Source of the DNA: a virus
DNA: 64,000 nt
Direction: 5' to 3' (one strand)
IMG/VR virus record: IMGVR_UViG_3300024520_000003
Span: 6,745-70,744 of that record
Both the position numbers and the translations under genes were made by a program. How positions within the stretch are numbered: the first letter of the stretch is position 1; every line of letters begins with the position of its first letter. Positions 28,224-44,199 of the stretch are shown piece by piece. Below the pieces are notes generated by a model. The model was not told the DNA's origin, did not search any database, and worked only from the letters and a program-made list of their open reading frames with translations.

Positions 28224-29747
28224 TTAGAATGAAACGTTATCGATGATTCCGCATTTTGTCGGGACCTTCACATGAAGCGAACCAAAAAGCATAAGCAAGA
28301 ACGGAATAGAAGTCGTTGCCTGGGCTAATGGACGCCGGAGAAAATCTAATAGCTGTGCCCAATACATTACACCTGGGTCCATCTGTAACAGATAGGCTTG
28401 ACCAGTCGAAGGACGATGCAAGTTCTCATCCACGATAACAGTCGCAGCAGCAACGGTCGGGTTTCGGGGAAACTGCCACATGTACGTTGCAGAGTCACCA
28501 TCGGTATTCCCAACAGCAGTTCGATAGACACGGTAGTAGCGAATTCCACCGGCACCTGAGATAGGTTGAGCGGCGTCACCCATGGTAAATGTCACTTTCT
28601 GACCAGCGAGAACCGTGATGGTTGTCTCGTTGACACCAGTAAGGACTTTGACCGGGGCAGTAATTCCCTTATCACCAACACCAACGAAACGATATCGGTA
28701 ACCACCGGCATCGGCTGCGCCGAATTTGCTAGTTCCAGATGCAGCTTGAGCTACGTTTGCAATTGGGAGCGTGAAGGTACCGGGATCACCGAACGGATCG
28801 GTGTTTTGATCTGCACGATTGGTTGACAAAGGAGCTTGCTCGATTGAAACCATTCCACCCGGACCAGCGATTGAAAGTCCCTCTGACCCGAATACCAACT
28901 GCGTGGAGTTGGAAGGGGACATTTGGAAACGACCAAAGCTTGTCGCGATGTTCACGAGCTTCGCGTAGACGCGAGGATCGAGCATAATCGTGTTCACATA
29001 ACCAAAGTTTGGTGCAGCGGCTACGTCATAAAGCTTGTTGATCAAGTCTTGAGGAGTAAGCTCGGCACCATCAAGGTTCAAGTAGTTAGAACCGTTTGCG
29101 GCGATTGTGTGAGCACCTGTTGCGCCATCGTAAGTCGGTTGAGCGACTTGCTGATAAAGACCGTCAAACTGAAGACCTTCACCACCGGCACCTTCTACAC
29201 CCATGAGTGAAGAACCGAGGAACAGAGCGCGCTCCAACTTACCCATGAGGGCTTTGGTGCCATCAATAGTCTGTTGAGCAAGACCCTGACGACTAACACC
29301 ACCAGAGTATCCCATGATTCCCGCCATTGTGGCGACATCGGTAATTTCTCTCTGTTCGGCAAGGTACTTCACCTTGACAATTTTACGAGTATAGGTGCCG
29401 TCAGAATTAGTACCGTTCGCGCCTTCTGCAATGAAGGGGTCCAGGTCCATATTTCCGTATGCACTGACAACCGTGCTTTCATGCAGAGGGCTAGTTACGT
29501 TGACTTTGGTGAGTTTCTTCCAAAGCTTCACCGCCATCTCGCTATAGGTAGCAGTATCAAGCGTGCTTTGAATGCTCTGTGGAACCAACGGAGCGAAACT
29601 ACCACTACCAGCCTGACCTTGAGTCGGGTAACCAGCGGATGCTTTAGCCATCGGTGCGCCACTTGCTTGAAGTGCCTTGTTTAGATCTTGAAGTTCGTGC
29701 ATCGAGACTGATTGTCCAGCCAGTGCACTGAGGGATTGCAAATTCAT
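28224..29747 (-). CDS. major capsid protein
   Basis: KASAGY N-terminus, LERALFLG, LQFDGL, C-terminal QLLDFLRRPLA...LMLFGSL...P.K; 507 aa after protease and scaffold. Confidence 0.88.
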   Translation of the reverse strand: MNLQSLSALAGQSVSMHELQDLNKALQASGAPMAKASAGYPTQGQAGSGSFAPLVPQSIQSTLDTATYSEMAVKLWKKLTKVNVTSPLHESTVVSAYGNMDLDPFIAEGANGTNSDGTYTRKIVKVKYLAEQREITDVATMAGIMGYSGGVSRQGLAQQTIDGTKALMGKLERALFLGSSLMGVEGAGGEGLQFDGLYQQVAQPTYDGATGAHTIAANGSNYLNLDGAELTPQDLINKLYDVAAAPNFGYVNTIMLDPRVYAKLVNIATSFGRFQMSPSNSTQLVFGSEGLSIAGPGGMVSIEQAPLSTNRADQNTDPFGDPGTFTLPIANVAQAASGTSKFGAADAGGYRYRFVGVGDKGITAPVKVLTGVNETTITVLAGQKVTFTMGDAAQPISGAGGIRYYRVYRTAVGNTDGDSATYMWQFPRNPTVAAATVIVDENLHRPSTGQAYLLQMDPGVMYWAQLLDFLRRPLAQATTSIPFLLMLFGSLHVKVPTKCGIIDNVSF

Positions 29748-29774: not shown

Positions 29775-30638
29775 TTAGTTAAGAACAAGTTTTGCCGATT
29801 CAGCAACTTCCGTTGCATCCGCGCCACTCTCGAGCATGGCAACAGCCATAGACAGTTCCGCTGCGCGATTGGCATCAGTACCAGCACGCAACTCCTCGTG
29901 AGCTTTCGCAATAACGTCGTGAGCAGAGAAACCACTCTTTTTCACAACAGAATCTTGAGGACTCTCGATGACTTGTAAATCGCCAGCGTCGATAATTGAC
30001 CGTGGCGGAACAGGTTGACCGATTGCTTTCAAAAGAGCATCGATCTTTTCGTTGAGATGAGAAATGACAGCAGCGTTTTCACGAGTTGTCGCGGATAGGC
30101 TTTTCACAACGTCTGTGACGGCCATATAACCCTTGGCAAGAGTCTCACTTTGGTTCCGAACATCGTGAACAATGTTGTCGGCACCTTTTGAGATAATTGC
30201 CACGAGGTCGTAATCCTCTTCACCTTTCATAATATCAAAGTCGTCGTCATCGTGGCCTTTGCCATAACGTGACATCTCGGAGTTGAACGCACGATCTGAC
30301 TCGCTGTTAGCCTCTGCCTCTCGGGACTCCTCGGGCTGATTGGGCGCTCGACCGCTTGCGTCTGTACCTGCTTTCATTTTGCCCTTCTCTCCCTTGTCGA
30401 GGTTTTCTTCTTCTTCATCATCATCGTCTTTCTCGTCGTCTTTTTCCTCTTCGGCTTTTACAATAACCTCTGGGAAAACCTCTTTCACTGCTGCTGTTGC
30501 AGCCTTGAGGATGGCGTCGGGGCCAGTTTCACCAGCCAACTCACCTTTTGAGATTTTTGACTCTACAAGAGTGTCAATTTCTTCAGCATCGAGACCCTGT
30601 TGCGAGAGTCGCGCCCGATATTGATCTGCACTGTCCAT
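29775..30638 (-). CDS. capsid scaffold protein (start probably 30638)
   Basis: Acidic and helical; lies between protease and capsid; ten [ILV]-x-K-[ASG] motifs; PVPPRS motif. Confidence 0.75.
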   Translation of the reverse strand: MDSADQYRARLSQQGLDAEEIDTLVESKISKGELAGETGPDAILKAATAAVKEVFPEVIVKAEEEKDDEKDDDDEEEENLDKGEKGKMKAGTDASGRAPNQPEESREAEANSESDRAFNSEMSRYGKGHDDDDFDIMKGEEDYDLVAIISKGADNIVHDVRNQSETLAKGYMAVTDVVKSLSATTRENAAVISHLNEKIDALLKAIGQPVPPRSIIDAGDLQVIESPQDSVVKKSGFSAHDVIAKAHEELRAGTDANRAAELSMAVAMLESGADATEVAESAKLVLN

Positions 30639-30640
30639 CT

Positions 30641-31414
30641 TTAGTTCCTCCCGCGCAAGCGGTTCAAAATTCCACGGACGATGTTTTCGCCCTGAGTCCA
30701 AGTCAGCATTGGTGATTTCTTCAATAATGCACTTGTCATCATGTCGATCTCACCATTCACTGAATAAGTTTCAGAAGCGAGAGCTTCAACACGACGTTGA
30801 GCTTCTTTCTGAATCTCGTCTTCTTTTTTGTCCCTGTCCTTACCACCATCAAGTGACTGTGGCACTACTGGAGCAAACGGAGCAGAGTATCCCATTGCTT
30901 GAGCCGGATAACCCGCCATGGCAGATCTAAAAAACATAGAAGCCATCACAGGGTCAAACGTTGCAAGCGGGTTCTTGGGGTTGGCGCTAATGGCAACAGA
31001 ATGGACCTTGGCCTCTTCTATCTTGTTTCCATTGCGACGAACGGCACGGCCTTCAATACTGAAGCCAAGTTTTGACTTGGAGTTGGCCTTGTTCAGTGTT
31101 CGTGCTTTCTCGAATATTTGCTTACCAAGTGCGTCTGTTAGAAACAGATCTGCCTCAATCTCAGTCGCACTGTGACCATTGAGTGATGACTTACTGAATG
31201 AAATTGGCTCGCCAACGATATTCATCACTCCACACGGATGCTCAAGGGTAATCCACTTGGCATCACTAAAATCTAAACCCTTTTGAATGATAATCTCATT
31301 ATCGGCATCCAGAGCTTCAGACGAAGCTATTCCTTTGATTCGACCGCGACCAGTTGTGTCGCCATCACCTTTCTCGATGATGTCAAAGGGTGCCCACAGG
31401 GTTACTAGTTCCAT
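30641..31414 (-). CDS. prohead protease
   Basis: IKGIASSEALDADNEIIIQKGLDF, EH, LGFSIEG (catalytic Ser), VAISANPKN. Confidence 0.88.
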   Translation of the reverse strand: MELVTLWAPFDIIEKGDGDTTGRGRIKGIASSEALDADNEIIIQKGLDFSDAKWITLEHPCGVMNIVGEPISFSKSSLNGHSATEIEADLFLTDALGKQIFEKARTLNKANSKSKLGFSIEGRAVRRNGNKIEEAKVHSVAISANPKNPLATFDPVMASMFFRSAMAGYPAQAMGYSAPFAPVVPQSLDGGKDRDKKEDEIQKEAQRRVEALASETYSVNGEIDMMTSALLKKSPMLTWTQGENIVRGILNRLRGRN

Positions 31415-31464: not shown

Positions 31465-31701
31465 TCATCGTAGTTTCATATCATTAGCCATGTCAAGCAA
31501 CTTTGGTGATATTCTAAGAGGTATCCCAGTTGGACGACCACACCCATGGCACTTAATCTCACAAAATCCATCTTCACGAAGAACCACGCATCTGCTTTTT
31601 ACGAATAACTTAAGTCGTCCGTTTTTAGCCCTTCCATCCAGTCTAAGACCGCAGTTCTGGCAGGATAGTTTCAACTGGGTGTTATTATCTAACAGTGCCA
31701 T
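31465..31701 (-). CDS. zinc-ribbon protein, Mu Com-like
   Basis: CQNCG...EIKCHGCG. Confidence 0.55.
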   Translation of the reverse strand: MALLDNNTQLKLSCQNCGLRLDGRAKNGRLKLFVKSRCVVLREDGFCEIKCHGCGRPTGIPLRISPKLLDMANDMKLR

Positions 31702-31702
31702 G

Positions 31703-34700
31703 CTATCCCAGGGGATGACCTCCGAGTGCTGCTAGTGCTGCTTGAGCGCGCTTTTTTAGCGTTCTAAGGCTTCTTTGGAAGTGTCCTCTGTAACGAGGAT
31801 CACCCCCACCGGCACCTTCACTCCAAACTTCTCCAGCGTTGTCTATAGCGCCACTGTTCGGGTCGAGTGCGTATTCAAGAGCCTCTTTGGTCCATTTCCC
31901 AGACTGGAAACTATCAATAAACTCCTCCCTGTTTTCTTGGCGTTGTGCGAAGTCAGGGTTGTCTGGGTCATACCCGTAGGTATCAGCCTCCAATGCCTGG
32001 AACTCGTCCCGAAGTCGAGGTGTTAGCTTTATTTCAACCGCTGGACCTCTATTGGTTTGATGGATCTTTGGGCCTTTGATGTGTCTTTCTGCTTTGGGTG
32101 ATTTGTCTTTCTTTGCTCTTGCTGATGCAATTAGTTCTGAAAATGGACCGTCGCCTAACCCACTCGATCTTGACTCAGGACTGTGTTCATCAGGGCGACC
32201 CGTGACAGCCATCGCGAGACTTGCCTCAGACCAATCGGATATAGCTGGAACCTCAGTCTTTTCAGTTCCCATTAGTTTTGCAATCTTACGCATATCAGCG
32301 GGGTCTCGAATTAACCACGTTCCGTTCTTTTTATTGTAGGTTCCAATCTGCGCTCTCTTGTTCTTGGTTTTCTTTCCACCGTAGTAGAGTTGATTAAGGA
32401 CTTCGTGGGCGTGAGATCCATCCTCGGCTCCACGAAGAACTAGACCCTTGCCAGTTCTTGAGACGCCGATACCAACCGTACCGACCTTAGCTATTGCCTG
32501 TCGTGCGCGGAAATCCCGTGTCTTGTTACGACTTGTCGCCGTCTTTAGCCCAACAGCCTCTAAAACGTCCTCACCTCGTTGAAATCCGTAGACAGACTCT
32601 CTGAAGTAGTCCTTAGCAACCTCAACCTCACTCTTAGACGTAGCAGTTTCCAGCGCAGAAAAGGCATCTTCAACTTCATCGTTTTTACTCTCGTCGATAG
32701 AATATGAGTGCTCCCACGACAGAAGCTCGCCTGTGGTTTTATTCGCTCCCGGGTTTCCTTCAACAAGCGCACCCATGTTGGCGAGTTTCTTACCAACGAG
32801 TTCACCAAGGTGAGTTTCAAACTTATCGTCACCTTGCATCCAAATCATGTCCACGTCGGACTGAGATCCCATTCGGTAACTCCGTCCAGCGACCTGTTGA
32901 AAGTCTGCGCCGCTCAGTGGAAGGGTTAGGTTGATCTGGGTCCTGGGTCGACCACCTTTTCGGTCATGGTAGCTAAGACCCGTTCCACCCTTGGCCATTG
33001 TCCCAACGATTACACGCTTATCCCCTCGTTGATAGGCGGCTGTCTCTTCCTTGGCATCCGCTCCTCCGTGCGCTTGACCAACGTACTCTTTCGCCTCTTC
33101 GTAGGTAAGCTCACGTCCAGCGAGGTGTGATCCCAACTTAATGGTCATATATTTCAGTGTGTCGCGCTCAGGCATTGAGGCTGCAATAGCATCTATCTGG
33201 TCTGCGTATTCTAGTGCAGACTCAGGGAGGGTTTGACTTACATGAACACGATGCCTGATTGAATCAGCTATGCCCGTGATTCGTTTGTTTGTGTGTTTAG
33301 TGTAAGCAGTGAAAAGAAGAACCTGAGCGTTGGGATCTCCATTAAGTTTATCTATGGCCATGCTAACGGCCTGTTCTGCCTTTGCGGCTTCCCATGCCTG
33401 TCGTTTCCACCCGAAAATACGACCACCCGTTGTCAGTGGGTTCAGTCCCGCCTCTATTGCCAACCTTTTTACCTTGTCGGCGGCGCTAAACGCCTCTGAA
33501 TACACTGGGTCCATTTCTGATGCTTTCACTTTGCCAAAGTTAACATTCAGATCCACGACTTCACCTTGACGGTTTGTCATGGCTGCGTAGTTAGGAACTC
33601 GCTTGGCACCACCACCGCTTGCGTGAAGAAGTGCTGCTACAGCCACAGACGGGAGTGGAGATCTGGGGTTTTTGACATCGAATGGAATAGCACCCTGCTC
33701 CATACCTCGCCGTGACACACCGGCACCCAATTTCTCTGCCCATTCCACGAACTCACCACCTGTCTTGAACCATCCCATTTTGCGAAGATAGTGAAGGTCT
33801 TTGATATTCGTGTAGGGTGTCGCGCTCATGTAGAGCACCTTTTCAGCTTGATCCTGTAGTTTGACTGCTGCTTGTGCTTCCTGACCTGTCGGGTTCGCCA
33901 TCTTGTGAGCTTCATCGAAAACTATGGTGTCGAACTTACCCTCGTATTCCGGCTTCAATAAGATAACGAAAGTTCCATCAGGCTGTTCTTCCCTTGTGAA
34001 AAGTTCATTATAGGACGCAACGAAGTAACCATCACCGCCCTCCCGAGGGTGCTTGAAATTAAGATTGTATAAATCTCCAGTCTCAGCCCATTGGGATTTG
34101 AGACCCTTTCCACCCGCAGTGGGAACCACGACAAGATTCCTCTTCCCACCCCGGGCAATCATCGCACCCATGGCTGTCAGAGTTTTTCCTAGCCCAGCTT
34201 CATCCTGAAGAACGAACCCGTCACGCTCGTCCCATGACTGGAGAATTCGGGAGATTCCCTCTTCCTGATGCCTGAAAAGGCTGTAATATCCTTCCTCCTC
34301 ATTGGCATTTGGGAAGTTGGTTACATCGTTTGGAACCTCTTTTGTAATTCTCGGAGCAACGTCCTCATGTAGCATTATCGAGATATTGCTAGGCGGTGTT
34401 GTGGCGTTGTAGTCCTTGACGTCTAAATCACCGTCGTAGAAAACCCCATACCGTTTTGCCTCGTCAAACCACGTCGCCTTTGTCTTTGCCGTTCCTGTGG
34501 TAACTGCCTCAGCGACCTTTCGCTTTAGAAACTCTTTATGAGATGCGATGTCTGCCGCGTGGTGATCCTGAAGGAGTTTGGTGAATTTCTTCTTAGTCAT
34601 CCACCTCTCTCGCTCAGTTGCTGAGTTCTTGACCCGAACTCGGTCACCTTCCATTTCAATAACTTCAAGGTGAGTTTCGACCTTCTCACCGTTCTTTTCT

Positions 34701-34954
34701 GTAGATATGGCGTACTCAGACCCGACGTGCATGTGGGCTTCAGACCCAATATACTCACCGTGCTGTGCTACACGACTGGAGTATTTCCACGGGTACCAGT
34801 AACGCCACTGACCCCCGAACTTCTTTCTGTATCCACCAGACTTAGATCCAGCGATGGCCTCGAAACCCGATGGAGGTTTGTCGGTCGTTTTGTACTTCAT
34901 TTTGTACTTTGCGCCAGACCGCGCCTTCATAAGAAGCTCTGAAAATGAATACAT
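31703..34954 (-). CDS. SF2 helicase (Strawberry-notch/SNF2-like), putative head cargo
   Basis: DEAGLGKT, FDEAH, SAT, GGTGLSYHD, QQVAGRSYR. Confidence 0.85.
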   Translation of the reverse strand: MYSFSELLMKARSGAKYKMKYKTTDKPPSGFEAIAGSKSGGYRKKFGGQWRYWYPWKYSSRVAQHGEYIGSEAHMHVGSEYAISTEKNGEKVETHLEVIEMEGDRVRVKNSATERERWMTKKKFTKLLQDHHAADIASHKEFLKRKVAEAVTTGTAKTKATWFDEAKRYGVFYDGDLDVKDYNATTPPSNISIMLHEDVAPRITKEVPNDVTNFPNANEEEGYYSLFRHQEEGISRILQSWDERDGFVLQDEAGLGKTLTAMGAMIARGGKRNLVVVPTAGGKGLKSQWAETGDLYNLNFKHPREGGDGYFVASYNELFTREEQPDGTFVILLKPEYEGKFDTIVFDEAHKMANPTGQEAQAAVKLQDQAEKVLYMSATPYTNIKDLHYLRKMGWFKTGGEFVEWAEKLGAGVSRRGMEQGAIPFDVKNPRSPLPSVAVAALLHASGGGAKRVPNYAAMTNRQGEVVDLNVNFGKVKASEMDPVYSEAFSAADKVKRLAIEAGLNPLTTGGRIFGWKRQAWEAAKAEQAVSMAIDKLNGDPNAQVLLFTAYTKHTNKRITGIADSIRHRVHVSQTLPESALEYADQIDAIAASMPERDTLKYMTIKLGSHLAGRELTYEEAKEYVGQAHGGADAKEETAAYQRGDKRVIVGTMAKGGTGLSYHDRKGGRPRTQINLTLPLSGADFQQVAGRSYRMGSQSDVDMIWMQGDDKFETHLGELVGKKLANMGALVEGNPGANKTTGELLSWEHSYSIDESKNDEVEDAFSALETATSKSEVEVAKDYFRESVYGFQRGEDVLEAVGLKTATSRNKTRDFRARQAIAKVGTVGIGVSRTGKGLVLRGAEDGSHAHEVLNQLYYGGKKTKNKRAQIGTYNKKNGTWLIRDPADMRKIAKLMGTEKTEVPAISDWSEASLAMAVTGRPDEHSPESRSSGLGDGPFSELIASARAKKDKSPKAERHIKGPKIHQTNRGPAVEIKLTPRLRDEFQALEADTYGYDPDNPDFAQRQENREEFIDSFQSGKWTKEALEYALDPNSGAIDNAGEVWSEGAGGGDPRYRGHFQRSLRTLKKRAQAALAALGGHPLG

Positions 34955-34966
34955 AGCTCGAATCCT

Positions 34967-35128
34967 CTATTTGATGCCCTTAAGATTTGGAAGAGTTGGC
35001 TCTAGTCCTAAATCTTTTTGCTTTTTCATATCTCTCAACATTTTGTCGATCTTAGCTCGATCTGACTCCTTAAGGTGTTCATATCCACTTATCTTAAGGT
35101 GAACGGGTTGTTTATCACGATCTGTCAT
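34967..35128 (-). CDS. small hypothetical protein (53 aa, not in the ORF track)
   Basis: MTDRDKQPVHLKISGYEHLKESDRAKIDKMLRDMKKQKDLGLEPTLPNLKGIK; ATGA overlap with the MuF stop; fills the gap exactly. Confidence 0.55.
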   Translation of the reverse strand: MTDRDKQPVHLKISGYEHLKESDRAKIDKMLRDMKKQKDLGLEPTLPNLKGIK

Positions 35129-36051
35129 GCTGCAATCTCCTCATCTTCTATAGGAACGAAATCCCAGTTCTCATCCATAGTAAACCCAGGAGGGATGACC
35201 TGTACACCACATCGGCAATTTGGATGCACTGGCCAGATGGTTGGTAACCAATCCTGACGTTTTCTTCCAGCGTTTGTGTCATTGGCAACTAGATCAGCGA
35301 CGTTGAAGACAATTGGGGTATCCCCTTGGAGGAAGACCCTGCGGCAGTCAATACACGCTGTTTGATCTGGAGTTCTTGCGACTCTGGCATCTTCGCCGTA
35401 GATCTCCAACGATTCAATCACCGTTGCTTCGTTATAGACGCCCTGAAGTTCAGTTCGTGCGATCCGATGCCAGTTTCTGTTCCAATTTCCACTTGCTGTG
35501 CCCAAGTCCGTTGCAAGTTGCTCCGATGTTCGACCCCTGACAACGGCTTCGGCTAGTTCATCTGGGAGGACATCTAGATCCCTTTTTTGGGCCTCTTCCT
35601 CAAAATCTATATCGGATTGCTCGGATTCCCAAACGTCACCAACTCGCTGAGACACATCGTCTTCAATGAACTCACCCAGGTCTTTGATTAGTTCACCAGA
35701 GCGATCTAAAGCGCGTTCATACGATATGGACTCCCTTCTTGTCAGCCATGGTGGTGGGACAGTTGGGTCGTTGATATCGCTAATGCTAATTCCCTTATCT
35801 TTTGCTCTGGCTATAATCTCGTCGTTTATTTCAGAAGTCCATCGGGTTAGGTCCCATTGGCGCATGACATCGAGTTGGTCTGGAGTGGCGTTTGCCATCT
35901 TGTTTCCCATAAGGATCGCAAAAAGAAACGAATCAATCGGGTGGATAGTTCCAGGAACACTCATACCACCAACGGTCTGCCAGATATTTGTGTTGTATTC
36001 CCGTATAGCAAGTTCAATGCTTGCTTGGGCGGCGGTTAGAAGGCTATTCAC
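35125..36051 (-). CDS. MuF/SPP1 gp7-like minor head protein
   Basis: WHRIARTE, ACIDC, PVHPNCRC. Confidence 0.88.
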   Translation of the reverse strand: MNSLLTAAQASIELAIREYNTNIWQTVGGMSVPGTIHPIDSFLFAILMGNKMANATPDQLDVMRQWDLTRWTSEINDEIIARAKDKGISISDINDPTVPPPWLTRRESISYERALDRSGELIKDLGEFIEDDVSQRVGDVWESEQSDIDFEEEAQKRDLDVLPDELAEAVVRGRTSEQLATDLGTASGNWNRNWHRIARTELQGVYNEATVIESLEIYGEDARVARTPDQTACIDCRRVFLQGDTPIVFNVADLVANDTNAGRKRQDWLPTIWPVHPNCRCGVQVIPPGFTMDENWDFVPIEDEEIAA

Positions 36052-36293
36052 TCCCCGTTGACCTTCTCAAGCACTACCTTAGTCAGTCCCTTCATGTGTT
36101 CAGACCATCGCGCTTCCATTAGGTCCGATAGTTGACGGAGTGCTTTCACTTCGCCGTCCCCAGGTAAGTCTGGAAGGACAGATCTAACCGTTTTCCTGGC
36201 ACCTCCGATGGCTTTCTCAAGTCGGTTGCTTATATCGTGTGGACAACCATCGCTGATTTCACCCGGATAGGACTCGCAGATGATTAGTTTCAT
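36048..36293 (-). CDS. hypothetical protein
   Basis: 81 aa, 4-nt overlaps with both neighbours; contains LEKA. Confidence 0.6.
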   Translation of the reverse strand: MKLIICESYPGEISDGCPHDISNRLEKAIGGARKTVRSVLPDLPGDGEVKALRQLSDLMEARWSEHMKGLTKVVLEKVNGE

Positions 36294-37387
36294 TCGCTGT
36301 CCTTTTTCTTAGTGCCTTTGTCATGTGGATTTTTATATCCAACTGGTTCTTTTTTCTTAGTGCCTAGTCCTCGACGTTTATACTCGTCCTGAAGAAGTCT
36401 TCGTTGTTTCTTCTCTGCTTCCTTATCTAACCCGGGCCTGTTTTTGATTCTGTCTAGATTGGCTTGAATCTGACCATCACTCATTTTTCGGACACGGTCT
36501 TTTGAGGCAAAGTCCTTTTTCTCATTTCTTATCTTTTCGCGAATGTCATCTATTTCAGCCTTAGCCTTCTTTCTATCCGAATCGGTCTTTGCTCCATAAA
36601 GTGCACCAAGGGGAGCGGATAACATTGCGCCAGATCCAGGAGCGAGTATATCAAGGATTCTCGAAACCTGACTCGCGAGTCCGTTTATGAGTGCCGCGTT
36701 TAGTTCCTTGGTCTGTTGTTTGCGTTTAGCGTTCTCGGCTTGATCTTCTAAGCTAGGTGCATCCTGAGTCCCATCTTCCTTGGGTTCCTCTTTCTTTTCT
36801 TCTTTTCCACCACCCTCATCATCGTCATATATGTAGGTGTAGTTCCCTGGAGTCCCTTCTCGCGTTCCTGGACCGTCATAGGGATCTCCCGTTGCTTTGA
36901 ATATCCTTGCGCCCAGAACTGAGAACTCGAACGTGCCCTTTTCTATTATGTTCACAGCCTCGTAGCCCATCTGCATGACCGCATCGACGGCCTCTTGGGC
37001 GCTTCTGTGCTGTGTGTCTGGCACGTTTTGGCCCGGGTTGGGCACTGCTTGGTCAAAGAACGAAGCTTGCCACATTCCGGGCTTTTTTGAGCTTCTATGA
37101 ACGAACACCCACTGACTGCCTTGCCCTGACAGTTTTATACCGCCGATCTTATTCTCATCACCCACTTTGAAAGTCCGTTTGTTTGATTGAGTGTATTTGT
37201 AGTCATAATTCCCAGGAGATCCGGTCCTGGAACCCGTTCCAGAGTATGCGGTGCTCTTTTCAACCATTCGGTTATAGATGCCCATAATATAAGCGTAATT
37301 CTCACCCTTTCCAGCCCTGGATGCTAGATCACGGGCTTTCTTCCATCGTTTCTCGTCTTTTTTGGTTTTTACTACGCTAGTTGGCAT
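36290..37387 (-). CDS. putative head cargo protein (ChaB-like N-terminus, repeated YxGxGxRxGxxGxY tags)
   Basis: DEKRWKKARDLA...YAYIMGIY; YSGTGSRTGSPGNYDYKY and YDGPGTREGTPGNYTYIY. Confidence 0.65.
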   Translation of the reverse strand: MPTSVVKTKKDEKRWKKARDLASRAGKGENYAYIMGIYNRMVEKSTAYSGTGSRTGSPGNYDYKYTQSNKRTFKVGDENKIGGIKLSGQGSQWVFVHRSSKKPGMWQASFFDQAVPNPGQNVPDTQHRSAQEAVDAVMQMGYEAVNIIEKGTFEFSVLGARIFKATGDPYDGPGTREGTPGNYTYIYDDDEGGGKEEKKEEPKEDGTQDAPSLEDQAENAKRKQQTKELNAALINGLASQVSRILDILAPGSGAMLSAPLGALYGAKTDSDRKKAKAEIDDIREKIRNEKKDFASKDRVRKMSDGQIQANLDRIKNRPGLDKEAEKKQRRLLQDEYKRRGLGTKKKEPVGYKNPHDKGTKKKDSE

Positions 37388-37399
37388 TTTTATCTTCCC

Positions 37400-40300
37400 T
37401 TAGTCCTCTTCTACTTCTTCTTCCACTGCAAATACGAGATTCTGAAGAGCTTCTTTTGACGGAGTGTGACCCGTTACCTGCTTGAAAGCATCCTTTAGGT
37501 CTTTAGAGTCAAGAGAACTGAACGATATTCCAGCGTAGGCTATCTGATTCATAACTGCTTCGGCTTGTTCTGCGTGATAATCCCAATCACCGTCTTTAGC
37601 TTTACGACTGACTGATTTATCTGAACGGTATTTTGATTCAGTTTTAGACGCCTTTCCTTTGGTGGGTTTCTTTGACAACCAGTGGAGACTCTCTAGAAGA
37701 TCTCCCGCTAAATCGTCACGCCCCACGCCGATCTTTAATCGAGGAATCAACTCCTTTATAATGAGTTTCTCTACGTCAGTGTCCCGATGTTTCTTTGCTA
37801 GTGCGGCGCTTACTTTGAAAAGAAACTTGGATGTTACTAGTTCCTGCGGGGTTCCAAAATCCTCTTCGCTTAACTCTTCATAGTTACCACCAAGATAGCC
37901 CATGTAGTTGGTATGGTCCTCAACGTTAGAGAAAGTAGGTCTAAAGTCCTTCGGGATTAACTCGGGTTGTTTCTTTTCGGCCTTTCCTTTAGGTGATTCC
38001 AATACAGATGATAGGTCTGAAATTGCTAATGATTTCAGTGCGTTACTGATACCTTCTTCAACTCTTGGATCTTTCGGGTCAAGTCCTTCTTTCTCATACT
38101 TCGCGATGAACTCGTCCTTGAAGTCACCTATCTCGTTGGCCCATCCGCGAGCGATTCCTTCATCCACTTTCTTTGGATCTGGTTTTCCACCACCGTTCCA
38201 GGCAAGAGCAAATCTCAACCCATCGACAAACTGCTTATCATTGACATCAAAGTCACTGTCCTCGTGATGGATATTCTCCTTCAGGAAGTCTTCCAGTTCC
38301 TGAGTGAACGCCCTGTCAATTCCCATAGCACTTGCGCCTCTAGCCGAGGATGGGTCGGTGTCGTCTTCTTCATAAAGCGCTTTCTTGGATTGTTTCTTTC
38401 CGCCTTTGGAGTCTTTGTACTTATAGTCCCAGCCCTTTCCTGTCTTTTTCTTAGTTCTTGAGATGTACTTCTTGACCCGGGCTTTTGATAGTAAATCCGT
38501 CATGCTCATGGTGGATTTCTCGACACCTTTGAGTTCTTTATAGAGATTTCTAATTCCCAGATTTATGTACTCATGCTCGTCAATCTCAAACTCTGGTGCT
38601 GTGTCTGGAAGCCTAAAAGATGGGACCTGGAATGCGTTGACGTGGAAAACGAAATCGTCCTCACTCTCTCTGTCGGCACGGTCCTGTAACCATTCAGACT
38701 TTTTGGCCACGTTTGGATTTTTTAGGTCTATTAGACCTTTAACCCTTTCCAGTTCCTTCTTATCAAGATTTCCTATTACTTGCTTTCGGTATTCTGCGTG
38801 GGCTTTGAGATCTTTTTTATTCGCAATTTTCGATAACTTGTTCGATCTTTCAATTGCTTTACTTTGGATCTCCGAAGAGAACTTGTTTCCATAGTTCTCT
38901 AGAACCTTTGCAGCGAAACCGGCTGCGGTCCTTGCGTCTTCATGTGCATCTTCAAGTTTGAAGTTTTCGGATTTGCGTGCGGCTGACATCTTATTGCTAT
39001 GATCTACCGCTCTTTCCCTGAAATCCCACCGATCCAAAGTATTTGAACTTGAACCGCTCTCAGTCTCATGTGCGCGGCGATGAGCATCACCAGCATCACG
39101 GTGCTCTTTGACTTTTCCCATCCAATGTTTTTTCTCGTGAGGACGCTCCTCAACCATATTTCCCGCAATCGCTGCTAGATCATAATTGCGGTCCATTTCT
39201 TCTTTGTGGTCTACTTTTTCTTTTTTACTACCTGTCTTTGCGTCGTCCTTGTATTTGTAGTCCCAACCCTTACCGCTTTTCTTTTTGGTCCTGGATATAT
39301 ATTTCTTGGTTCTGGCTTTGGTTATCAGGTCACCGAGATCTGTGAAGGACATGGACTTTTTGGTCCTTGAGCTTCGCCCTTCGACTGCACCACCGGTCTT
39401 AGCGTGAACCGTCATTCCACCTGAAGTTGCAGTTACCCCAACGTGAGCAGGTTTTCCATGACCTGCGGCACCTAGTATCTCAGCATCACTCATTTTCTCT
39501 GCTTTTGTTGAGTGTTCACGAACAGCCGCCAGGAATTTCTTCTGTCGGTGTTTTCTTCTGGGTGAGGATAAGTTCCTGGGGTTTATCGAGATGTCCATGT
39601 GTTGGAAGTCTTCGAATCCCATGTCGTTCGCAATGTTATCCAAGTCCAATGTGCCGATATCTAACTTGTGTGCGAATCCAGACCAGTTGGAGTTCTTTGG
39701 GCCTTGATTACCCCTTCGTTCCTCATGCCGGGAACTAGTTTTTTCCGACCTCATGGACCTTCCACGACCTTCAGATTCTTTCCATGGGATTGTGTGTTGG
39801 GCATCAGCCCACATACCGCCGCGGGGACCCCTGTAAGGACCACCCTTGGATAGACTATCGCTCTTATTCGTGAGCGCCTTCATTAGTATATTTTTCAGGG
39901 TTAGGGATTTTTGCGTTTCCTTTACCTTGTAACGATAAAGTGAGTTTTTCCCCGGCTCACGAGTCTTTGTATTGTAATTTTCATAGTCGAGGTAGCTTTT
40001 CTTGCCCTCCGTTTCCTTGGCATGGTGAGCCATGACGGCATGCGCATGGTCCCTGCTTTTTAGTCCATCGACACTACTGCTTTTCCCGTTGTGGCTGAAC
40101 CTCACTGAATGTGTGCCGTCACGATCCTTGTTGATGCTGTAGTGTGACCTACCGTGTCCCCCTTCACCGCGCAATGTCGGGTGGTTGTGCTCAGTGTCAC
40201 CGCTGTCTTTGTATTTGTGTCTCTGGGTGGGGACTGGGTGACTATGGTCCTCGTAGATTGGCTTTCCACTAGCGGTGTGGCCGATGATCTTGCCGCCTCG

Positions 40301-42556
40301 GGAGCCTTCACCACCTTTTTTTACGGGAACCCCTCCAGATCTCTTGCTTGATGGCTTCTCTCCCATTTTCCTTCCTCCGTGAAGTTCGTTATGGTGACTG
40401 GATGCTGCCGCGTAGTGAGCGTCCCTGAGTTCCCTAGCGTTATCTCGATCTGCACCGTCTTTCATTGTTTTCTGTGCTTTGTGGTGTTTATTGCTTTCGT
40501 TCATGTGAATATCTATAAAATCAGCGTGATCTTCCTTGGAATGTCCTTCAAGTTTTTCAAACGACGACTGGGAGTGAACTTTTCCATTCTTTGGTGCGTA
40601 GATAGGGTTACCGCTGGCAGTGTGACCGACGACATTACCGCCTTTTGAACCTTCACCGCTCTTTGCTTTGATGATTAGATTGCCTAGATCTGTGAATGAC
40701 ATGGCCTCTCCATTTCCAAGTGATTTGCCTATTTGCTTCATTGGGGAACTTCCGTGGTATTTTGAGTACCGTTGTTGAACCAGTGTAAGCAACTCACGTT
40801 GCTGTTTCGGGGACGCGATCCGTGTCATGGCCGACTCGACCGATATTCGTTTCAGGATAATGTCTTCTGCCAATTGTTCCAAGAGCGGTATTGCCTTGGT
40901 GAGTTCTCCACTCATTTCCAGGAACCACTCGGGTAGATCGAACTGCTCTAGGGACTCGCTGTCGTCGTCCTTGGCTGGCTCTGCATTACCTGCTCCCTTG
41001 GCTGGCTTGGCTAGTGCGGCCTCTAGGATGCTCTGTGTCGTGGCCTTAGCAATAACCTCGATTTGGTTATGCCATGAGTCGAATATAGACGGAGGGATGT
41101 AGGATTTCTTCGTCACTGCTGGAGTGTTATTCAGCGCATCTGAAACGAAAATCGCACACTCGTTAACGATCTTAACCACCTCTTTTTTCGTCTTAGGTGG
41201 TGGGGAGTCTCTTTGTGCAAGGAACTCGGCTGCTTTTTCAGCGGCTACGTTGGTTCGGAAGTCCTTGGGTTTGAAACCGCTAAGACCTACCTTGCCCATC
41301 ATTAGAGATAGTCCTTCACCGGATAGAGTTCTTCGCCATAGCGGTGCGTCCCCTCGACCTTTTTTGCTTTGGGCGATGTACTTTGCTAGGTCTTTGTCTT
41401 TGAGTGACGAGGTGTTGTGTTTCTTGGATTTACCCGTGAATGAAAAACTAACTTCACCCGTCTTTGTGTTGGCCTTCACGTCACCCGTATGTAACGTCAT
41501 CACGCCCTTCGTTCCATGTTTCCTGACGTGTGCCTGTCCACCGTGTCCTGCCCTTAGACCTGTTTGCGATATGATTAGCAGTGCAGCAGCGGTATCCCTG
41601 GCCGTTTGAGGTTGGGATGAATCGTTCATAAACTTGCGAAGTTTGCGTTGAGCGGCTGGGACTTTGTCGTTTAGTTGGCGCACTCGGTTCCACTTGTTTG
41701 CAGCGTTTCGGTCCATGAACGTGCTGGTGTACGCGTGACGCTTGTCGCCATTTGGTGCTCGCCATGTCATAACAGCACCAGAATGAATGTCTTCGGCAGT
41801 TGCACCATGGTCGATTAGATCTGTCACGCCGACAGGAGGTATCTTGTCCAGACCTTCGTTTTTATACTTTTTTACAAGTTTATCGCGTTCTTTTTTTGTG
41901 ATTCCTTTAGGTTTTTCCTTGTCAGGGATTGCGCGTCTTTCCCTTCCTGACCCTTCATCATATTTGTATTCGTAATGACCTTTAACACCAGTTCGCTTGC
42001 CCTTACCTGAATAGGTATCGCCTTTCGCAATGGACTTAGAAACCGAGGCAGGTGGTTTACGCTCTTCGTCCTTAGTCCACGGCCCATAATTTTTGTTCTG
42101 GAAACTGTTAACCATCGCGGCATTGGTTGTGTACTTCTTCACTCCGCTTGGCTTGAATGTGGCGTAGAACTCGTCCTTGGGCCACCCTGTTTTCATATAC
42201 TCTTCTTTTCCGAGTCCGTGTTCGTGATACCAAACACCTTGCTCAGTCTGCCAGTCCATCACAGTACCATCAGCGCGTTCAACCCATCCATGAGGACCGC
42301 TCAGCCCTTTGATTTTTCCGTGAACTACTCGGTCGTCATCGTGTTCACCAGCGGCACCAGCGGCATCGACATCCTTTCTCATGTTAGCGTATGGAAAGCA
42401 CATTCCACATGCGGCAGTCTTTTTCTCCCGCTTAGAGTCCTCGGTGTATTTGTATTTGTAATGACCTTTGACGCCAGTGCGTTTACCTTTGCCAGAGTAG
42501 CTATCCCCTCGGGACTTCAGGATAATTTCCCCTAACTCAGTAAACGTCTTCATCAC
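37400..42556 (-). CDS. 1718-aa polyvalent head-cargo protein containing a topoisomerase IB domain
   Basis: TGLRAG, FTGKSKK, KDFRT, LNNTPAVTKKSYI; several duplicated leader and tag motifs; ATGA-coupled to the portal gene. Confidence 0.8.
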   Translation of the reverse strand: MMKTFTELGEIILKSRGDSYSGKGKRTGVKGHYKYKYTEDSKREKKTAACGMCFPYANMRKDVDAAGAAGEHDDDRVVHGKIKGLSGPHGWVERADGTVMDWQTEQGVWYHEHGLGKEEYMKTGWPKDEFYATFKPSGVKKYTTNAAMVNSFQNKNYGPWTKDEERKPPASVSKSIAKGDTYSGKGKRTGVKGHYEYKYDEGSGRERRAIPDKEKPKGITKKERDKLVKKYKNEGLDKIPPVGVTDLIDHGATAEDIHSGAVMTWRAPNGDKRHAYTSTFMDRNAANKWNRVRQLNDKVPAAQRKLRKFMNDSSQPQTARDTAAALLIISQTGLRAGHGGQAHVRKHGTKGVMTLHTGDVKANTKTGEVSFSFTGKSKKHNTSSLKDKDLAKYIAQSKKGRGDAPLWRRTLSGEGLSLMMGKVGLSGFKPKDFRTNVAAEKAAEFLAQRDSPPPKTKKEVVKIVNECAIFVSDALNNTPAVTKKSYIPPSIFDSWHNQIEVIAKATTQSILEAALAKPAKGAGNAEPAKDDDSESLEQFDLPEWFLEMSGELTKAIPLLEQLAEDIILKRISVESAMTRIASPKQQRELLTLVQQRYSKYHGSSPMKQIGKSLGNGEAMSFTDLGNLIIKAKSGEGSKGGNVVGHTASGNPIYAPKNGKVHSQSSFEKLEGHSKEDHADFIDIHMNESNKHHKAQKTMKDGADRDNARELRDAHYAAASSHHNELHGGRKMGEKPSSKRSGGVPVKKGGEGSRGGKIIGHTASGKPIYEDHSHPVPTQRHKYKDSGDTEHNHPTLRGEGGHGRSHYSINKDRDGTHSVRFSHNGKSSSVDGLKSRDHAHAVMAHHAKETEGKKSYLDYENYNTKTREPGKNSLYRYKVKETQKSLTLKNILMKALTNKSDSLSKGGPYRGPRGGMWADAQHTIPWKESEGRGRSMRSEKTSSRHEERRGNQGPKNSNWSGFAHKLDIGTLDLDNIANDMGFEDFQHMDISINPRNLSSPRRKHRQKKFLAAVREHSTKAEKMSDAEILGAAGHGKPAHVGVTATSGGMTVHAKTGGAVEGRSSRTKKSMSFTDLGDLITKARTKKYISRTKKKSGKGWDYKYKDDAKTGSKKEKVDHKEEMDRNYDLAAIAGNMVEERPHEKKHWMGKVKEHRDAGDAHRRAHETESGSSSNTLDRWDFRERAVDHSNKMSAARKSENFKLEDAHEDARTAAGFAAKVLENYGNKFSSEIQSKAIERSNKLSKIANKKDLKAHAEYRKQVIGNLDKKELERVKGLIDLKNPNVAKKSEWLQDRADRESEDDFVFHVNAFQVPSFRLPDTAPEFEIDEHEYINLGIRNLYKELKGVEKSTMSMTDLLSKARVKKYISRTKKKTGKGWDYKYKDSKGGKKQSKKALYEEDDTDPSSARGASAMGIDRAFTQELEDFLKENIHHEDSDFDVNDKQFVDGLRFALAWNGGGKPDPKKVDEGIARGWANEIGDFKDEFIAKYEKEGLDPKDPRVEEGISNALKSLAISDLSSVLESPKGKAEKKQPELIPKDFRPTFSNVEDHTNYMGYLGGNYEELSEEDFGTPQELVTSKFLFKVSAALAKKHRDTDVEKLIIKELIPRLKIGVGRDDLAGDLLESLHWLSKKPTKGKASKTESKYRSDKSVSRKAKDGDWDYHAEQAEAVMNQIAYAGISFSSLDSKDLKDAFKQVTGHTPSKEALQNLVFAVEEEVEED

Positions 42557-44199
42557 TCCACCTCGATGATATAGGCTTTGACTCCTGGTTCTGCGTCAAC
42601 CAGGGCCAGTTTTCCGCCTTTCGATACTCGATTTGGATCGACCTTCCACTCCACACGACCGCTTCGGATTCCTTCCTCTGTGGACTTGGCAATGTCCTCC
42701 AGAAGACCATCTAGGTCATATTGGTAGTCATCATCACCTTCGTCGCCACCTTGACCATCACCACCGCCTTCAGATTCCTGTTGTTCTTCAGCCCTCATTT
42801 GGTTCCATGTGTTGACGTAGGTTGGGTCCAATATGACCTCACCCAGTGGAGTGTCTAGCTTGGGTAGATCGTGTTCGGCTCTGACTTCGTTGATTGTCCT
42901 GTAGCCTTTGAGCACTTGGAGGTCTAGTTTGACTCGCTCAGACTCGCTCATGGCGTCTTGGCCGACTATTTCAAAGCAAAAGTCTTCGTCCAGGGACTTG
43001 ACGACGTAGGTGTTCATCCAACTTTCAAGTGACCGGAGCAGGGGTCTTAGTCCACGTTCCTTGGATGCTATAATCCGTTGCTCTGGACCGCTGGAACTCA
43101 GTGAGGAAGTCTGACCCTCATTTCCGAACGTGAATCCAATCTCAGCAGGGTCCATGGTGTAGACCGCGCAGGTGACTTTCAGTAGCCAGTTGATCCAATT
43201 GCTGTATTCCATTTCTTTGTTAGATTGGGAAAGCGATACGGCGCTTAGATCTTCATTACCCTCAGGAGATAGCTGGAGGATTGGCACTCTTTTGGCGTTT
43301 CTTGGACCCGTCATCATAGCCATAACGTGTCTTTTGAATGCGTCAAACACCTGTGCGGTCATTGTGCTTTTCAATAAAAGAATAGTCTGTGCGTGGATTC
43401 CGTTTGTGAAGTTGACGGAATTGTATGTTTGAGCGTTGAGAAGGTCAGTGATTACCCGCATCAACTCCTCGAGTTCTGGGTATCCGTACCCGGATGTCTG
43501 AATCCACGTTCTTGGACGACGGATACACCAAGCCATATCCCCAGGACTGTAGGTATTGACGATCTTATCGTCGACGGTTTGGATATAGGCCACTTTCTCG
43601 GCGTCTGGATACCATCTGCCTGTCTTACCGTCCTTCTTGCTCCCCTTTGGGCGTGCTTTGCGTATTGTGGAAGCGTCTACAGGGACGTATCCGACCAAGT
43701 CCCTGCCCTTATTTCCCAGTCCACGGGTTCTTAAGATCTCAAAGTTGGCCTGATCGTATGTTAGTGAGTCACGCATAAGCATACGAACGAAGGGTTCGAA
43801 ACCGCCTGGACCGTAGACACCACCCGCATCCTCGATAACGGCCATGATTTCCTTGGCGCGTTTCTTGGATGCTTTAGTGGCTTTCTGGTCTGAGTCCTTA
43901 AGAACGATCCGATATCCGGACGAGTATGGGGACTTCTGAGGAACTGCGAACTCAGCGACCTGTTGGATTCGGGTCTGGATAATAGCTCCAATGACCGGAA
44001 CCCGGGAGATATTCATCAACGTCCAGTAATCAACACCAACTGTTCCTGGGTGAACGTCACTAACTACCTCATCGAGGGTTTGCATGGAATACATGCCACC
44101 CGTGGGAGCCATGTTTAAGCTCTGTGGCTCTGGTAGCCGAGTCTCTTCGTTCCTGTCAGCAACAGGACCCGCTTTAAGTAGGTCGGCTAACCAGCCCAT
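42553..44199 (-). CDS. portal protein (A511/K-like; start probably 44199)
   Basis: RDSLTYDQANFE, VDASTIR, GYGYPELE, MDPAEIGF, GLRPLL, TINEVRAE. Confidence 0.92.
   Translation of the reverse strand: MGWLADLLKAGPVADRNEETRLPEPQSLNMAPTGGMYSMQTLDEVVSDVHPGTVGVDYWTLMNISRVPVIGAIIQTRIQQVAEFAVPQKSPYSSGYRIVLKDSDQKATKASKKRAKEIMAVIEDAGGVYGPGGFEPFVRMLMRDSLTYDQANFEILRTRGLGNKGRDLVGYVPVDASTIRKARPKGSKKDGKTGRWYPDAEKVAYIQTVDDKIVNTYSPGDMAWCIRRPRTWIQTSGYGYPELEELMRVITDLLNAQTYNSVNFTNGIHAQTILLLKSTMTAQVFDAFKRHVMAMMTGPRNAKRVPILQLSPEGNEDLSAVSLSQSNKEMEYSNWINWLLKVTCAVYTMDPAEIGFTFGNEGQTSSLSSSGPEQRIIASKERGLRPLLRSLESWMNTYVVKSLDEDFCFEIVGQDAMSESERVKLDLQVLKGYRTINEVRAEHDLPKLDTPLGEVILDPTYVNTWNQMRAEEQQESEGGGDGQGGDEGDDDYQYDLDGLLEDIAKSTEEGIRSGRVEWKVDPNRVSKGGKLALVDAEPGVKAYIIEVE

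Follow-up and report, generated by a model that had tools for sequence, protein, structure and literature searches.

Head genes of the window and the cargo block

The DNA analysed here (the window) is a stretch of 64,000 nucleotides, positions 6,745 to 70,744 of the IMG/VR record IMGVR_UViG_3300024520_000003. It covers most of a complete virus record of 70,744 bp, which has direct terminal repeats and belongs to an uncultured phage. All head genes of the window are on the minus strand, and follow each other in the order large terminase, portal, P0001, P0003, the gene of an 81-amino-acid (aa) protein, MuF, P0002, the gene of a 78-aa protein, prohead protease, scaffold and capsid. We studied the 11-kb block between the portal and the protease genes (positions 31,703 to 42,556), whose large mosaic proteins carry a recurring joint composed of a leader, a lysine followed by a small residue, and a short tag. 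Sequence comparisons support the conclusion that this leader-Lys-tag grammar is real, is conserved far beyond the phage of the window, and is tied to one family of head genes.

A sequence-only reading made earlier had placed proteins of 1718, 365, 81, 308 (MuF) and 1083 aa between portal and protease, and the gene layout matches this description. P0001 most likely starts with the ATG at 42553, which overlaps the stop codon of the portal gene (TGATG) and is preceded by the Shine-Dalgarno-like GAGGTGGAG. The scaffold most likely begins with Met22 (30638), by which the overlap with the protease gene is removed. In phages JD007 (Kayvirus) and SP-10 (Bacillus phage) the protease gene directly adjoins the portal gene and a cargo block is missing; therefore the 11-kb block of the window represents an insertion in a conserved head module. 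A megablast search with the head block did not find any match among isolate phages, and MuF used alone as query for related loci did not find any match either.

Leaders, candidate sites and tags of the cargo proteins

In the following an arrow marks a candidate cleavage bond (as in ILK↓S), and h stands for a hydrophobic residue. The cassette recognized at the joints consists of three parts: an amphipathic leader of about 8-13 residues, often located after another K↓S; a putative site with a hydrophobic residue (mostly Leu) in P3, Lys in P1 and Ala, Gly or Ser in P1′; and one of a few short basic tags of Gly/aromatic character. Every leader and additional site listed in the sequence-only reading was present at its place.

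The tags are of several kinds. Tag A ends in alternating Tyr residues, tag B has the consensus KYIxRT...GxGWxYxY, tag C is GEGS(R/K)GG-(V/I)IGHTxSGxPIY, and tag D is GGPY(I/R)GPRGGxWAD..HTIPW. A form related to tag D heads the helicase P0002. All ten tag copies counted in three cargo proteins directly follow a site of the hxK type. The MuF protein of the block has no motif site.

The leaders were also searched for with a pattern, [FM][ST][DE]L-x(2-6)-K[AS]. Five matches were found in 71 proteins, all of them in P0001 and P0002, whereas in 500 shuffles the mean was 0.064 and no shuffle exceeded 2 matches. Non-random in the cargo are this longer leader and the placement of sites immediately in front of the short Gly/Lys/aromatic tags.

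P0001 contains a topoisomerase, two helical modules headed by tag C, an 85-aa domain and at least two more modules; an activity could be assigned to the topoisomerase only. Residues 266-495 match the type IB topoisomerase structure 2f4q in the Protein Data Bank (PDB) with an E-value of 4.5e-14, and five PF01028 relatives of the module were found. Arg334, Lys375, Arg433, Asn476 and Tyr485 are invariant in an alignment of eight sequences, and we take them to be the catalytic pentad of type IB topoisomerases. Over its whole length P0001 is rare: among 5.8 billion proteins two length-matched relatives were found, P0001 itself included. The open reading frame (ORF) of a relative begins with MKTFQSLNDIYK↓A, the counterpart of leader 1 of P0001. 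The first 46 residues of P0003 recur at the N-terminus of larger proteins in relatives.

We also considered internal translation starts at leaders 2-4, and dropped this possibility, as no clear ribosome-binding site was found before the internal Met codons of these leaders. A separate observation concerns residues 45-170 of P0001 (42047-42424), a segment with Cys-x2-Cys and His-Gly-Trp motifs and without family assignment, for which a protein atlas search (residues 40-175) gave low-score YunG-like leads only (0.85-0.87). The segment could be a small hydrolase or peptidase.

Table 1. Positions of head genes, cargo modules, leaders and tags in the window
Feature	Position	Strand	Basis or remark
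Portal protein, 563 aa	42553-44244	−	Pfam Phage_portal and phrog_12
Leader-like N-terminal segment of portal, residues 16-24, ending LLK↓A	44173-44199	−	
P0001, polyvalent cargo protein, 1718 aa	37400-42556	−	translation
Leader 1 of P0001, MKTFTELGEIILK↓S, ending ILK↓S	42515-42553	−	
Type A tag of P0001, copy 1 (Gly/Lys-rich, alternating Tyr at end)	42443-42508	−	internal repeat
Type A tag of P0001, copy 2	41957-42022	−	internal repeat
Type IB topoisomerase module, P0001 residues ~200-505, ending at IAK↓A (K504)	41042-41959	−	
Leader 2 (SLGNGEAMSFTDLGNLIIK↓A) and tag C module 1 (GEGSKGG-VVGHTxSGxPIY, then helical hairpin)	40316-40723	−	
Tag C module 2, after site VKK↓G	39878-40315	−	
Tag D module: ILMK↓A and LSK↓G, then GGPYRGPRGGMWADAQHTIPW and domain of ~85 aa	39353-39877	−	
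Leader 3 (MSFTDLGDLITK↓A), tag B copy 1 (KKYISRT...GKGWDYKYK) and function-unassigned module	38516-39352	−	
VEK↓S, leader 4 (TMSMTDLLSK↓A), tag B copy 2 and C-terminal module	37403-38515	−	
P0003, cargo protein with two type A tags, 365 aa	36290-37387	−	
Type A tag of P0003 after VEK↓S	37190-37255	−	
Type A tag of P0003 after leader GTFEFSVLGARIFK↓A	36827-36937	−	
81-aa protein immediately upstream of MuF	36048-36293	−	homolog in L094 at same position, 35% identity
MuF-like minor head protein, 308 aa	35125-36051	−	Pfam Phage_Mu_F, E 1.6e-5; phrog_4728
P0002, Strawberry-notch-like superfamily 2 (SF2) helicase, 1083 aa	31703-34954	−	Pfam AAA_34, ResIII, Helicase_C_4; phrog_62, phrog_16
Leader of P0002, MYSFSELLMK↓A	34925-34954	−	
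Basic tag of P0002	34784-34924	−	
Helicase core of P0002	~32267-34444	−	
78-aa zinc-ribbon-like protein upstream of protease, four Cys (two CxxC pairs)	31465-31701	−	homolog in L098 at same position, 43% identity
Prohead (head maturation) serine protease, 257 aa	30641-31414	−	phrog_1028, E 3.5e-28
Scaffold protein	called ORF 29775-30701; likely 29775-30638	−	start probably Met22
Major capsid protein	28224-29747	−	phrog_752
Predicted N-terminal propeptide of capsid, sites LNK↓A (K24) and MAK↓A (K35)	29643-29747	−	

Tags in other uncultured phages

A degenerate DNA pattern for the core of tag C was found in 83 stretches of IMG/VR DNA. An hxK[ASG] site was located 8-16 residues upstream of the tag in 92 of the 97 occurrences (82 distinct ORFs), as compared to 18.4% of the background windows taken from the same ORFs. 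The pattern was also present in five species-representative genome contigs (L087-L091), all from Bacteroidota metagenome-assembled genomes; two of these contigs, 109 and 139 kb long, could be phage genomes that were included in the binning. The sole isolate-phage match of P0001 was the topoisomerase of a Bacteroides phage. Judged from such sequence matches, the host of the window phage is likely a member of the Bacteroidota.

Tag D was followed in a phmmer search, in which residues 880-1718 of P0001 (a segment that includes the tag) were compared with 1.84 billion representative proteins (E ≤ 0.001). The search returned 325 proteins, with the matches falling on tag D and on the 85-aa domain. 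The proteins with tag D are 400-3135 aa long, and the 85-aa domain is also found as a stand-alone protein of 90-135 aa. Among the 149 representatives listed, 109 proteins contained 226 copies of tag D, and an hxK[ASG] site was present within 8 residues before 209 of these copies. Thirty-three of the 226 copies are in the first 45 residues of their protein, mostly behind a leader of approximately 7-25 residues with hxK at its end. At the DNA level, a tag D pattern matched 110 IMG/VR stretches, with the site present in 115 of 131 distinct contexts.

Taken together, about 90% of the copies of tags C and D follow hxK↓[ASG], and the spacing between the Lys and the core of the tag is variable. In the pooled junctions P4-P5 are acidic, P3 is Leu in 70%, P2 is often Glu, P1 is Lys, P1′ is Ala, Gly or Ser, and P2′ is Gly. 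In about 70% of the junctions a second K[SAG] occurs not more than 24 residues upstream, most often at a distance of 9-13 residues. It follows that many leaders are short peptides with a candidate site on either side. Where a tag stands at the start of an ORF it is not placed right behind the Met, and a mini-leader ending in hxK is kept.

For the other two tags the data are fewer. Relatives of tag B are likewise found behind hxK↓[ASG], and a loose tag B pattern had this prefix in 8 of 16 cases. Matches to tag A elsewhere were weak (best E-value 0.0045), so the spread of this type is not established. The first, simple patterns for tags A, B and D did not find any of them in the tag C loci; phmmer then detected B and D there. 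A strict DNA pattern of the window's own leader had no match (0) in IMG/VR. The leader in its exact form is therefore restricted to close relatives, and looser relatives of it surfaced only through the loci found by tags.

Pfam domains were identified in eight of 15 scanned tag D proteins: LPD1, ddrB-ParB, InPase, SNF2, Zeta_toxin, DUF3560 and SAM lyase. This repertoire is typical of phage polyvalent proteins and conflict systems.

Association with head genes and exchange of modules

The loci collected by the tags were examined for homologs of other window genes. The 83 tag C loci, which had been found by the tag alone, contained homologs of the portal in 33, MuF in 26, the protease in 11, the capsid in 11 and the terminase in seven cases. 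In the 106 tag D loci the corresponding numbers were 57 for the portal, 55 for MuF, 24 for the protease, 18 for the helicase and 13 for the capsid. When whole records were considered, 33 of 50 tag C records contained a protease homolog, as did all nine of those that were at least 90% complete. In five of five complete relatives the tag was on the strand of the portal, and in four of these it was within approximately 10 kb of the portal, placed either between the portal and protease genes or a short way upstream of the former. In the remaining relative, the tag was between portal and protease only across the record ends, about 22 kb from the portal.

Comparison of individual loci revealed how the modules are exchanged. 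L094 is the closest relative by portal (51% identical), and encodes the portal, a different cargo, a homolog of the 81-aa protein and MuF. The leaders and tags in front of this cargo are the same as in the window. The 873-aa protein of L094 has an N-terminal leader ending in LLK↓G and an internal joint (SFTALTASIQK↓G) followed by a helicase-type tag, without a helicase after it.

L098 and L134 are parts of one contig, whose capsid protein is 39% identical to that of the window. The gene order in L098/L134 is portal, MuF fusion, cargo, homolog of the 78-aa protein, protease, scaffold and capsid. The 1773-aa polyprotein of L098 starts with MADFTSL...LRK↓G and tag D, contains internal joints FSDL(A/F)K↓[GA] with tag B, and has a leader at its end. 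The MuF of L134 is linked in one chain to further modules via AYSFSQLANLVK↓A, the counterpart of the leader at the start of helicase P0002. In L137 helicase and topoisomerase are within one 1747-aa protein, and in P0007 (1510 aa) the portal, Topoisom_I and MuF Pfam domains are united in one chain. The exchange of modules behind shared leaders and tags, anticipated in the sequence-only reading, is evident from the comparisons with L094, L098, L134 and L137. As modules are split, fused and exchanged in relatives, the cassette marks gene and module borders.

Two further observations were made in these loci. One is the type IB topoisomerase as probable head cargo; its module adjoins the portal in L034 and L137. 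In L134 (960-3398) MuF is joined by leader-tag joints to a module with a HELGH (zincin-like) motif, which is located between two tag D joints; embedded metallopeptidases and Lys joints therefore coexist in this phage group.

The products of the block might also act in the infected cell and not in the virion, with their position and motifs being incidental. The topoisomerase and the helicase could serve replication, the Pfam match of MuF scores 26.1 bits and is thus under Pfam's own cutoff of 29.6 bits, and packaging in virions is something that we infer. Against this speak the order portal-cargo-protease-scaffold-capsid, which is kept in relatives, the fusion of portal and MuF to such modules in other phages, the polyvalent domain repertoire of the sampled proteins, and the block itself, which is co-oriented and tightly packed with the late genes. 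We regard a purely intracellular role as very improbable.

Motif sites in capsid, scaffold and protease

The capsid protein of the window is 22-28% identical to the capsid proteins of SPO1-like phages, Kayviruses, some Thermus and some Bacteroides phages, and matches PDB chains 9vel, 9row and 5lii. It has DLNK↓A at K24 and MAK↓A at K35. Each of the 17 distinct capsid N-termini that related loci yielded has a (D/E)LxK↓A site at the matching place, and the site of the window aligns with NLNK↓A of SP-10 and with VVK↓S (K24) of JD007. The Kayvirus capsid protein in the PDB has 463 aa in 5lii and 439 aa in 9row, with coordinates offset by 24. From these chain lengths we infer that the mature Kayvirus capsid protein begins at residue 25, which fits K24↓S25. 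The capsid sequences are in agreement with the earlier proposal that the motif precedes the presumed mature N-terminus of the capsid protein.

The motif [ILVM]xK[ASG] was then counted in the assembly proteins and compared with shuffled sequences. The scaffold, described before as saturated with the motif, contains 11 copies vs a shuffle mean of 1.4 (z 8.3). The portal has seven vs 1.7 (z 4.4) and the protease four vs 1.1 (z 3.0). Similar values were obtained for the isolate phages: in JD007 the scaffold has seven sites vs 1.3 expected and the protease six vs 1.5, in SP-10 the numbers are eight vs 1.4 and eight vs 1.1, respectively. In the protease H59 and S119 (the latter in LGFSIEG) are invariant in 11 sequences, and an hxK↓[GAS] near residue 16 is conserved; from knowledge of the fold we take H59 and S119 to be catalytic residues. 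Comparison of the protease with PDB sequences did not give a match. The capsid sites and the saturated scaffolds and proteases indicate that a hydrophobic P3, Lys in P1 and a small P1′ residue are the likely specificity of this protease family. At the family level the cargo joints obey the same rule, with Leu in P3 and acidic residues in P4-P5, a profile that resembles the capsid site.

A feature of the protease is a segment located after the catalytic domain (residues 165-193, 30836-30922), which resembles residues 36-64 of the capsid protein (29556-29642). Fifteen of 29 residues are identical (pairwise E-value 1e-5), and the shared segment includes AGYP.Q and FAP(L/V)VPQS. In the capsid protein the copied segment starts exactly at P1′ of MAK↓A, the second predicted cut. 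Such mimicry of the capsid N-arm may be a way by which the protease gets built into the procapsid. A weaker version of the likeness was observed in L056. In other relatives the protease match is in a longer open frame, of 500-600 aa (G004, G007, G009, G019, G022, G024, G028, G029 and G041) or 1100 aa (G002 and G014), which suggests protease-scaffold fusions, unlike the separate genes of the window.

Cleavage could also be carried out by another enzyme: an embedded peptidase (zincin-like, or the 45-170 segment of P0001), or a host protease acting after injection. Autoprocessing by metallopeptidases has been proposed for polyvalent proteins (Iyer et al. 2017, PMC5512222, as far as the available text goes), the MuF fusion of a relative has HELGH between two tag D joints, and residues 45-170 of P0001 contain conserved-looking Cys and His residues in a segment of unassigned fold. 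However, a Pfam search (E ≤ 0.01) did not find any peptidase family, zincin-type included, in the five cargo proteins P0001-P0005, the proposed cut rule equals that of the capsid's own predicted site, and tags and prohead protease occur together in nine of nine complete genomes. We consider cleavage by such an enzyme improbable, and prefer the prohead protease.

Predicted structures and the case for cleavage at the joints

The surroundings of the joints were modelled with AlphaFold2 (AF2). In the model of the tag C module, based on a 63-sequence alignment, the leader and the site have a predicted local distance difference test (pLDDT) value of about 50, the tag forms a beta hairpin, and behind it comes a hairpin of two helices (pLDDT above 90). 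From there to the next joint the confidence is low again. The tag C module (40316-40650; loci L002-L084) is a domain of approximately 100 aa, often in tandem, with conserved His and Asp residues (H..H..F..DH.DA...H). Foldseek comparison of the model with the PDB gave nothing at E ≤ 0.001; encapsulated-ferritin rows with E-values of 4-6 represent generic helical hairpins, and were not taken as evidence, only as a lead to metal binding.

The model of P0001 residues 2-620, whose numbering is one below that of P0001, is confident over residues 216-500, with pLDDT values of 75-96 over the topoisomerase (220-500), and of low confidence over 516-548 and 603-619. Across the two models, K611, K630 and K747 are in low-confidence linkers between confident domains (pLDDT 46-53, 46 for K611). 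A complex prediction for residues 1-175 of the protease and a 50-aa peptide comprising leader, site and tag C had a score of 0.00, and nothing was concluded from it. According to the models most joints before tags appear to be in flexible segments, and not every motif match is plausible as a site.

Several observations weigh against cleavage at the joints, or against the sites as evidence for it. Some concern individual lysines: K504 is at the fraying end of the last helix of the topoisomerase (pLDDT 55), K554 is within a helix (pLDDT about 75), and the cargo site K655 is inside a core motif of the helicase P0002. Residues 1-215 of P0001 have pLDDT values below 50 and no relatives, and did not yield a usable model. 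The shared element is just about four residues long. It occurs 13 times in P0001 vs 8.6 expected (z 1.7, marginal) and three times vs 1.7 in P0003, and is not enriched in the helicase P0002 (two vs 4.1). The number of sites per Lys is 0.293 in the assembly proteins, 0.052 in the cargo block and 0.049 in the other 61 proteins. With a density equal to that of the rest of the proteome, the density test fails for the cargo. When a class-based context score was trained on 50 sites from scaffold, protease and capsid proteins, it did not rank the cargo joints of the window over chance sites elsewhere (Mann-Whitney p = 0.12). The tag modules did not have any match in 50,697 isolate phage records (tblastn, even at E ≤ 1). 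In two proteins, the product of L098:912-6230 and P0008, a leader with its site is at the extreme C-terminus. A cut at this leader would free a few residues only, so the leader must serve beyond separating modules. Moreover, the Lys need not mark a scissile bond and could simply belong to each conserved tag module.

These observations changed two claims of the sequence-only reading. Its expectation of a high motif density in head proteins holds for scaffold, portal and protease but not for the cargo proteins, where the values per Lys (see above) are the same as elsewhere. The proposal that sites lie at module borders stands for the tags, all of which are directly behind a site, but not for K655 in the helicase motif and K554 in its helix.

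The same observations bear on an alternative in which the joints remain uncut. Leader, Lys and tag would then form a conserved linker or a small element for binding, such as a basic beta hairpin with affinity for DNA, the inner face of the capsid or the portal, and the proteins would enter the head and be injected in one piece. Conservation of the Lys equals that of the tags, so that the two could be one motif; per Lys, the cargo shows no enrichment of the four-residue motif, the extended context of the window joints is unlike that of the scaffold sites, and some proteins have a C-terminal leader. There are also precedents for intact transfer, such as the virion RNA polymerase of N4, a polyvalent protein that is packaged uncut, and ArdC/TraC1 (PMC5512222, available text). 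On the other hand, the unrelated tags C and D share the hxK-small residue prefix in about 90% of their copies and at variable spacing, an argument that is limited for tags A and B by the few examples and by the 8 of 16 prefixes of the loose tag B pattern. The prefix is identical to the conserved, predicted maturation site of the capsid protein and saturates scaffolds and proteases, and tags at ORF starts retain a mini-leader ending in hxK. On balance uncut joints seem rather unlikely to us, and cleavage of the joints by the prohead protease remains the favoured reading: we consider it likely, though with only moderate confidence.

Proposed mechanism

The best explanation for the whole is that the 11-kb block encodes polyvalent head cargo of the phage type, comprising a topoisomerase, a helicase, MuF and several modules without assigned function. 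We hold this interpretation with modest confidence, at somewhat better than an even chance. It is probable that the capsid takes up the cargo proteins and that they are cleaved into modules inside it. By this mechanism the proteins would be incorporated in the procapsid together with the scaffold. The prohead serine protease, of the SPO1/Kayvirus type, would then cut after Lys at the joints; motif identity and gene context suggest that the same enzyme would also remove the capsid propeptide and degrade the scaffold and itself. The cuts would set the modules free from one another, with a tag at every new N-terminus, and the modules would leave the head with the DNA at infection, as suggested by MuF-linked polyvalent proteins, T4 internal proteins and P1 DarB. 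Of the grammar of leader, cut site, tag and effector put forward in the sequence-only reading, conservation and module exchange were borne out, whereas targeting, cutting, release and injection are argued from analogy and context only.

A more detailed model, which we put forward tentatively and regard as possible rather than probable, is that of a two-part portable code used by a large group of uncultured phages, probably infecting Bacteroidota. In this model the leader would dock the protein or module on the procapsid or on the protease, and would be excised at the flanking Lys sites. The tag, a basic beta hairpin, would be the second signal, by which the module stays with the DNA or gains entry to the exit channel.

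Comparison with known systems

The head genes of the window are most directly comparable with those of the Herelleviridae (SPO1, Kayvirus). The two share the capsid family, the protease family (phrog_1028), the order portal-protease-scaffold-capsid, a Lys↓Ser/Ala site in the capsid protein and motif-rich scaffolds. The capsid precursor of Listeria phage A511, mentioned in the sequence-only reading, is reportedly cut at a Lys-Ser bond. They differ in that JD007 and SP-10 lack the cargo block, and the tags are in none of the 50,697 isolate records.

The cleavage motif of the SPN3US prohead protease is reportedly AXE. As in the model proposed here, one protease (gp175 of phiKZ, gp245 of SPN3US) cuts the portal, ejection proteins and itself at a short motif, and propeptides are cut at several places, according to the available descriptions. 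SPN3US gp245 acts on 14 sites in nine head substrates, and 13 of the 14 sites serve removal of N-terminal propeptides (PMC10052503, available text). The differences are Glu in P1, the removal of propeptides rather than the separation of enzyme modules, and another capsid and protease lineage; a shared leader-plus-tag cassette is not mentioned in the available descriptions of these phages.

In phage P1 the large, helicase-containing anti-restriction protein DarB is packed into the head by an N-terminal signal, and its first 30 residues suffice to carry a reporter. The authors saw no consensus among the N-termini of the Dar proteins, and the P1 capsid protein is cut after Glu120 (PMC9024508, available text). 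Unlike the cargo of the window, the Dar proteins are presented in the main text of that paper without a cleavage cassette.

Phage polyvalent proteins were defined by Iyer, Burroughs, Anand, de Souza and Aravind, who proposed an embedded zincin-like metallopeptidase as release route for the units (Iyer et al. 2017, PMC5512222, available text). Like these proteins, the cargo of the window has unrelated effector domains in one chain and is encoded beside portal, terminase and MuF genes; Strawberry-notch (Sno)/SNF2 ATPases and MuF are common to both, and proteins sharing the tags carry LPD1, ddrB-ParB and InPase. A difference is that the cargo of the window is without a Pfam peptidase; the embedded zincin is common, not required, in polyvalent proteins. 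Junction motifs or processing by a prohead protease were not found in the main text of PMC5512222, the supplementary domain alignments being outside the search. A literature search did not find any published description of leader-Lys-tag joints in polyvalent proteins.

It is already known that phages carry and inject proteins, that prohead proteases trim internal proteins, and that polyvalent proteins exist. What appears to be undescribed is a leader-Lys-tag joint that can be read from the sequence and divides polyvalent proteins into modules, that is linked to the head protease and not to an embedded peptidase, and that is spread over hundreds of uncultured phage proteins. Virion proteomics based on trypsin is blind to cleavage after Lys, which may be why such cuts have gone unnoticed, and is a practical warning. 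If the joints are cut, a sequence rule would predict the mature effector set of such phages and explain how chains of incompatible enzymes become separate units, and it would offer compact tags for loading foreign proteins into capsids and releasing them there. If the two-part code is true, about 35 added residues would address any protein to the capsid, release it inside and deliver it from there, and polyvalent proteins could be parsed into working units from the sequence alone.

The prohead protease of T4, gp21, cuts after Glu and belongs to a family other than the protease of the window. The internal proteins of T4 (IPI-III and Alt) have a capsid targeting sequence that is removed by gp21, are carried in the head and injected, and their leader is able to carry foreign proteins (PMC9024508, available text). 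Similarly, P0001 and P0002 begin with leaders ending in ILK↓S and LMK↓A, which look like sites of the prohead-protease type. In T4 there is one leader per small protein, without internal joints in multi-enzyme chains, and the mature N-terminus does not have a conserved tag, whereas the predicted sites of the window have Lys in P1 and are associated with a protease of phrog_1028. The internal proteins of T4 are the closest functional model for the cargo described here.

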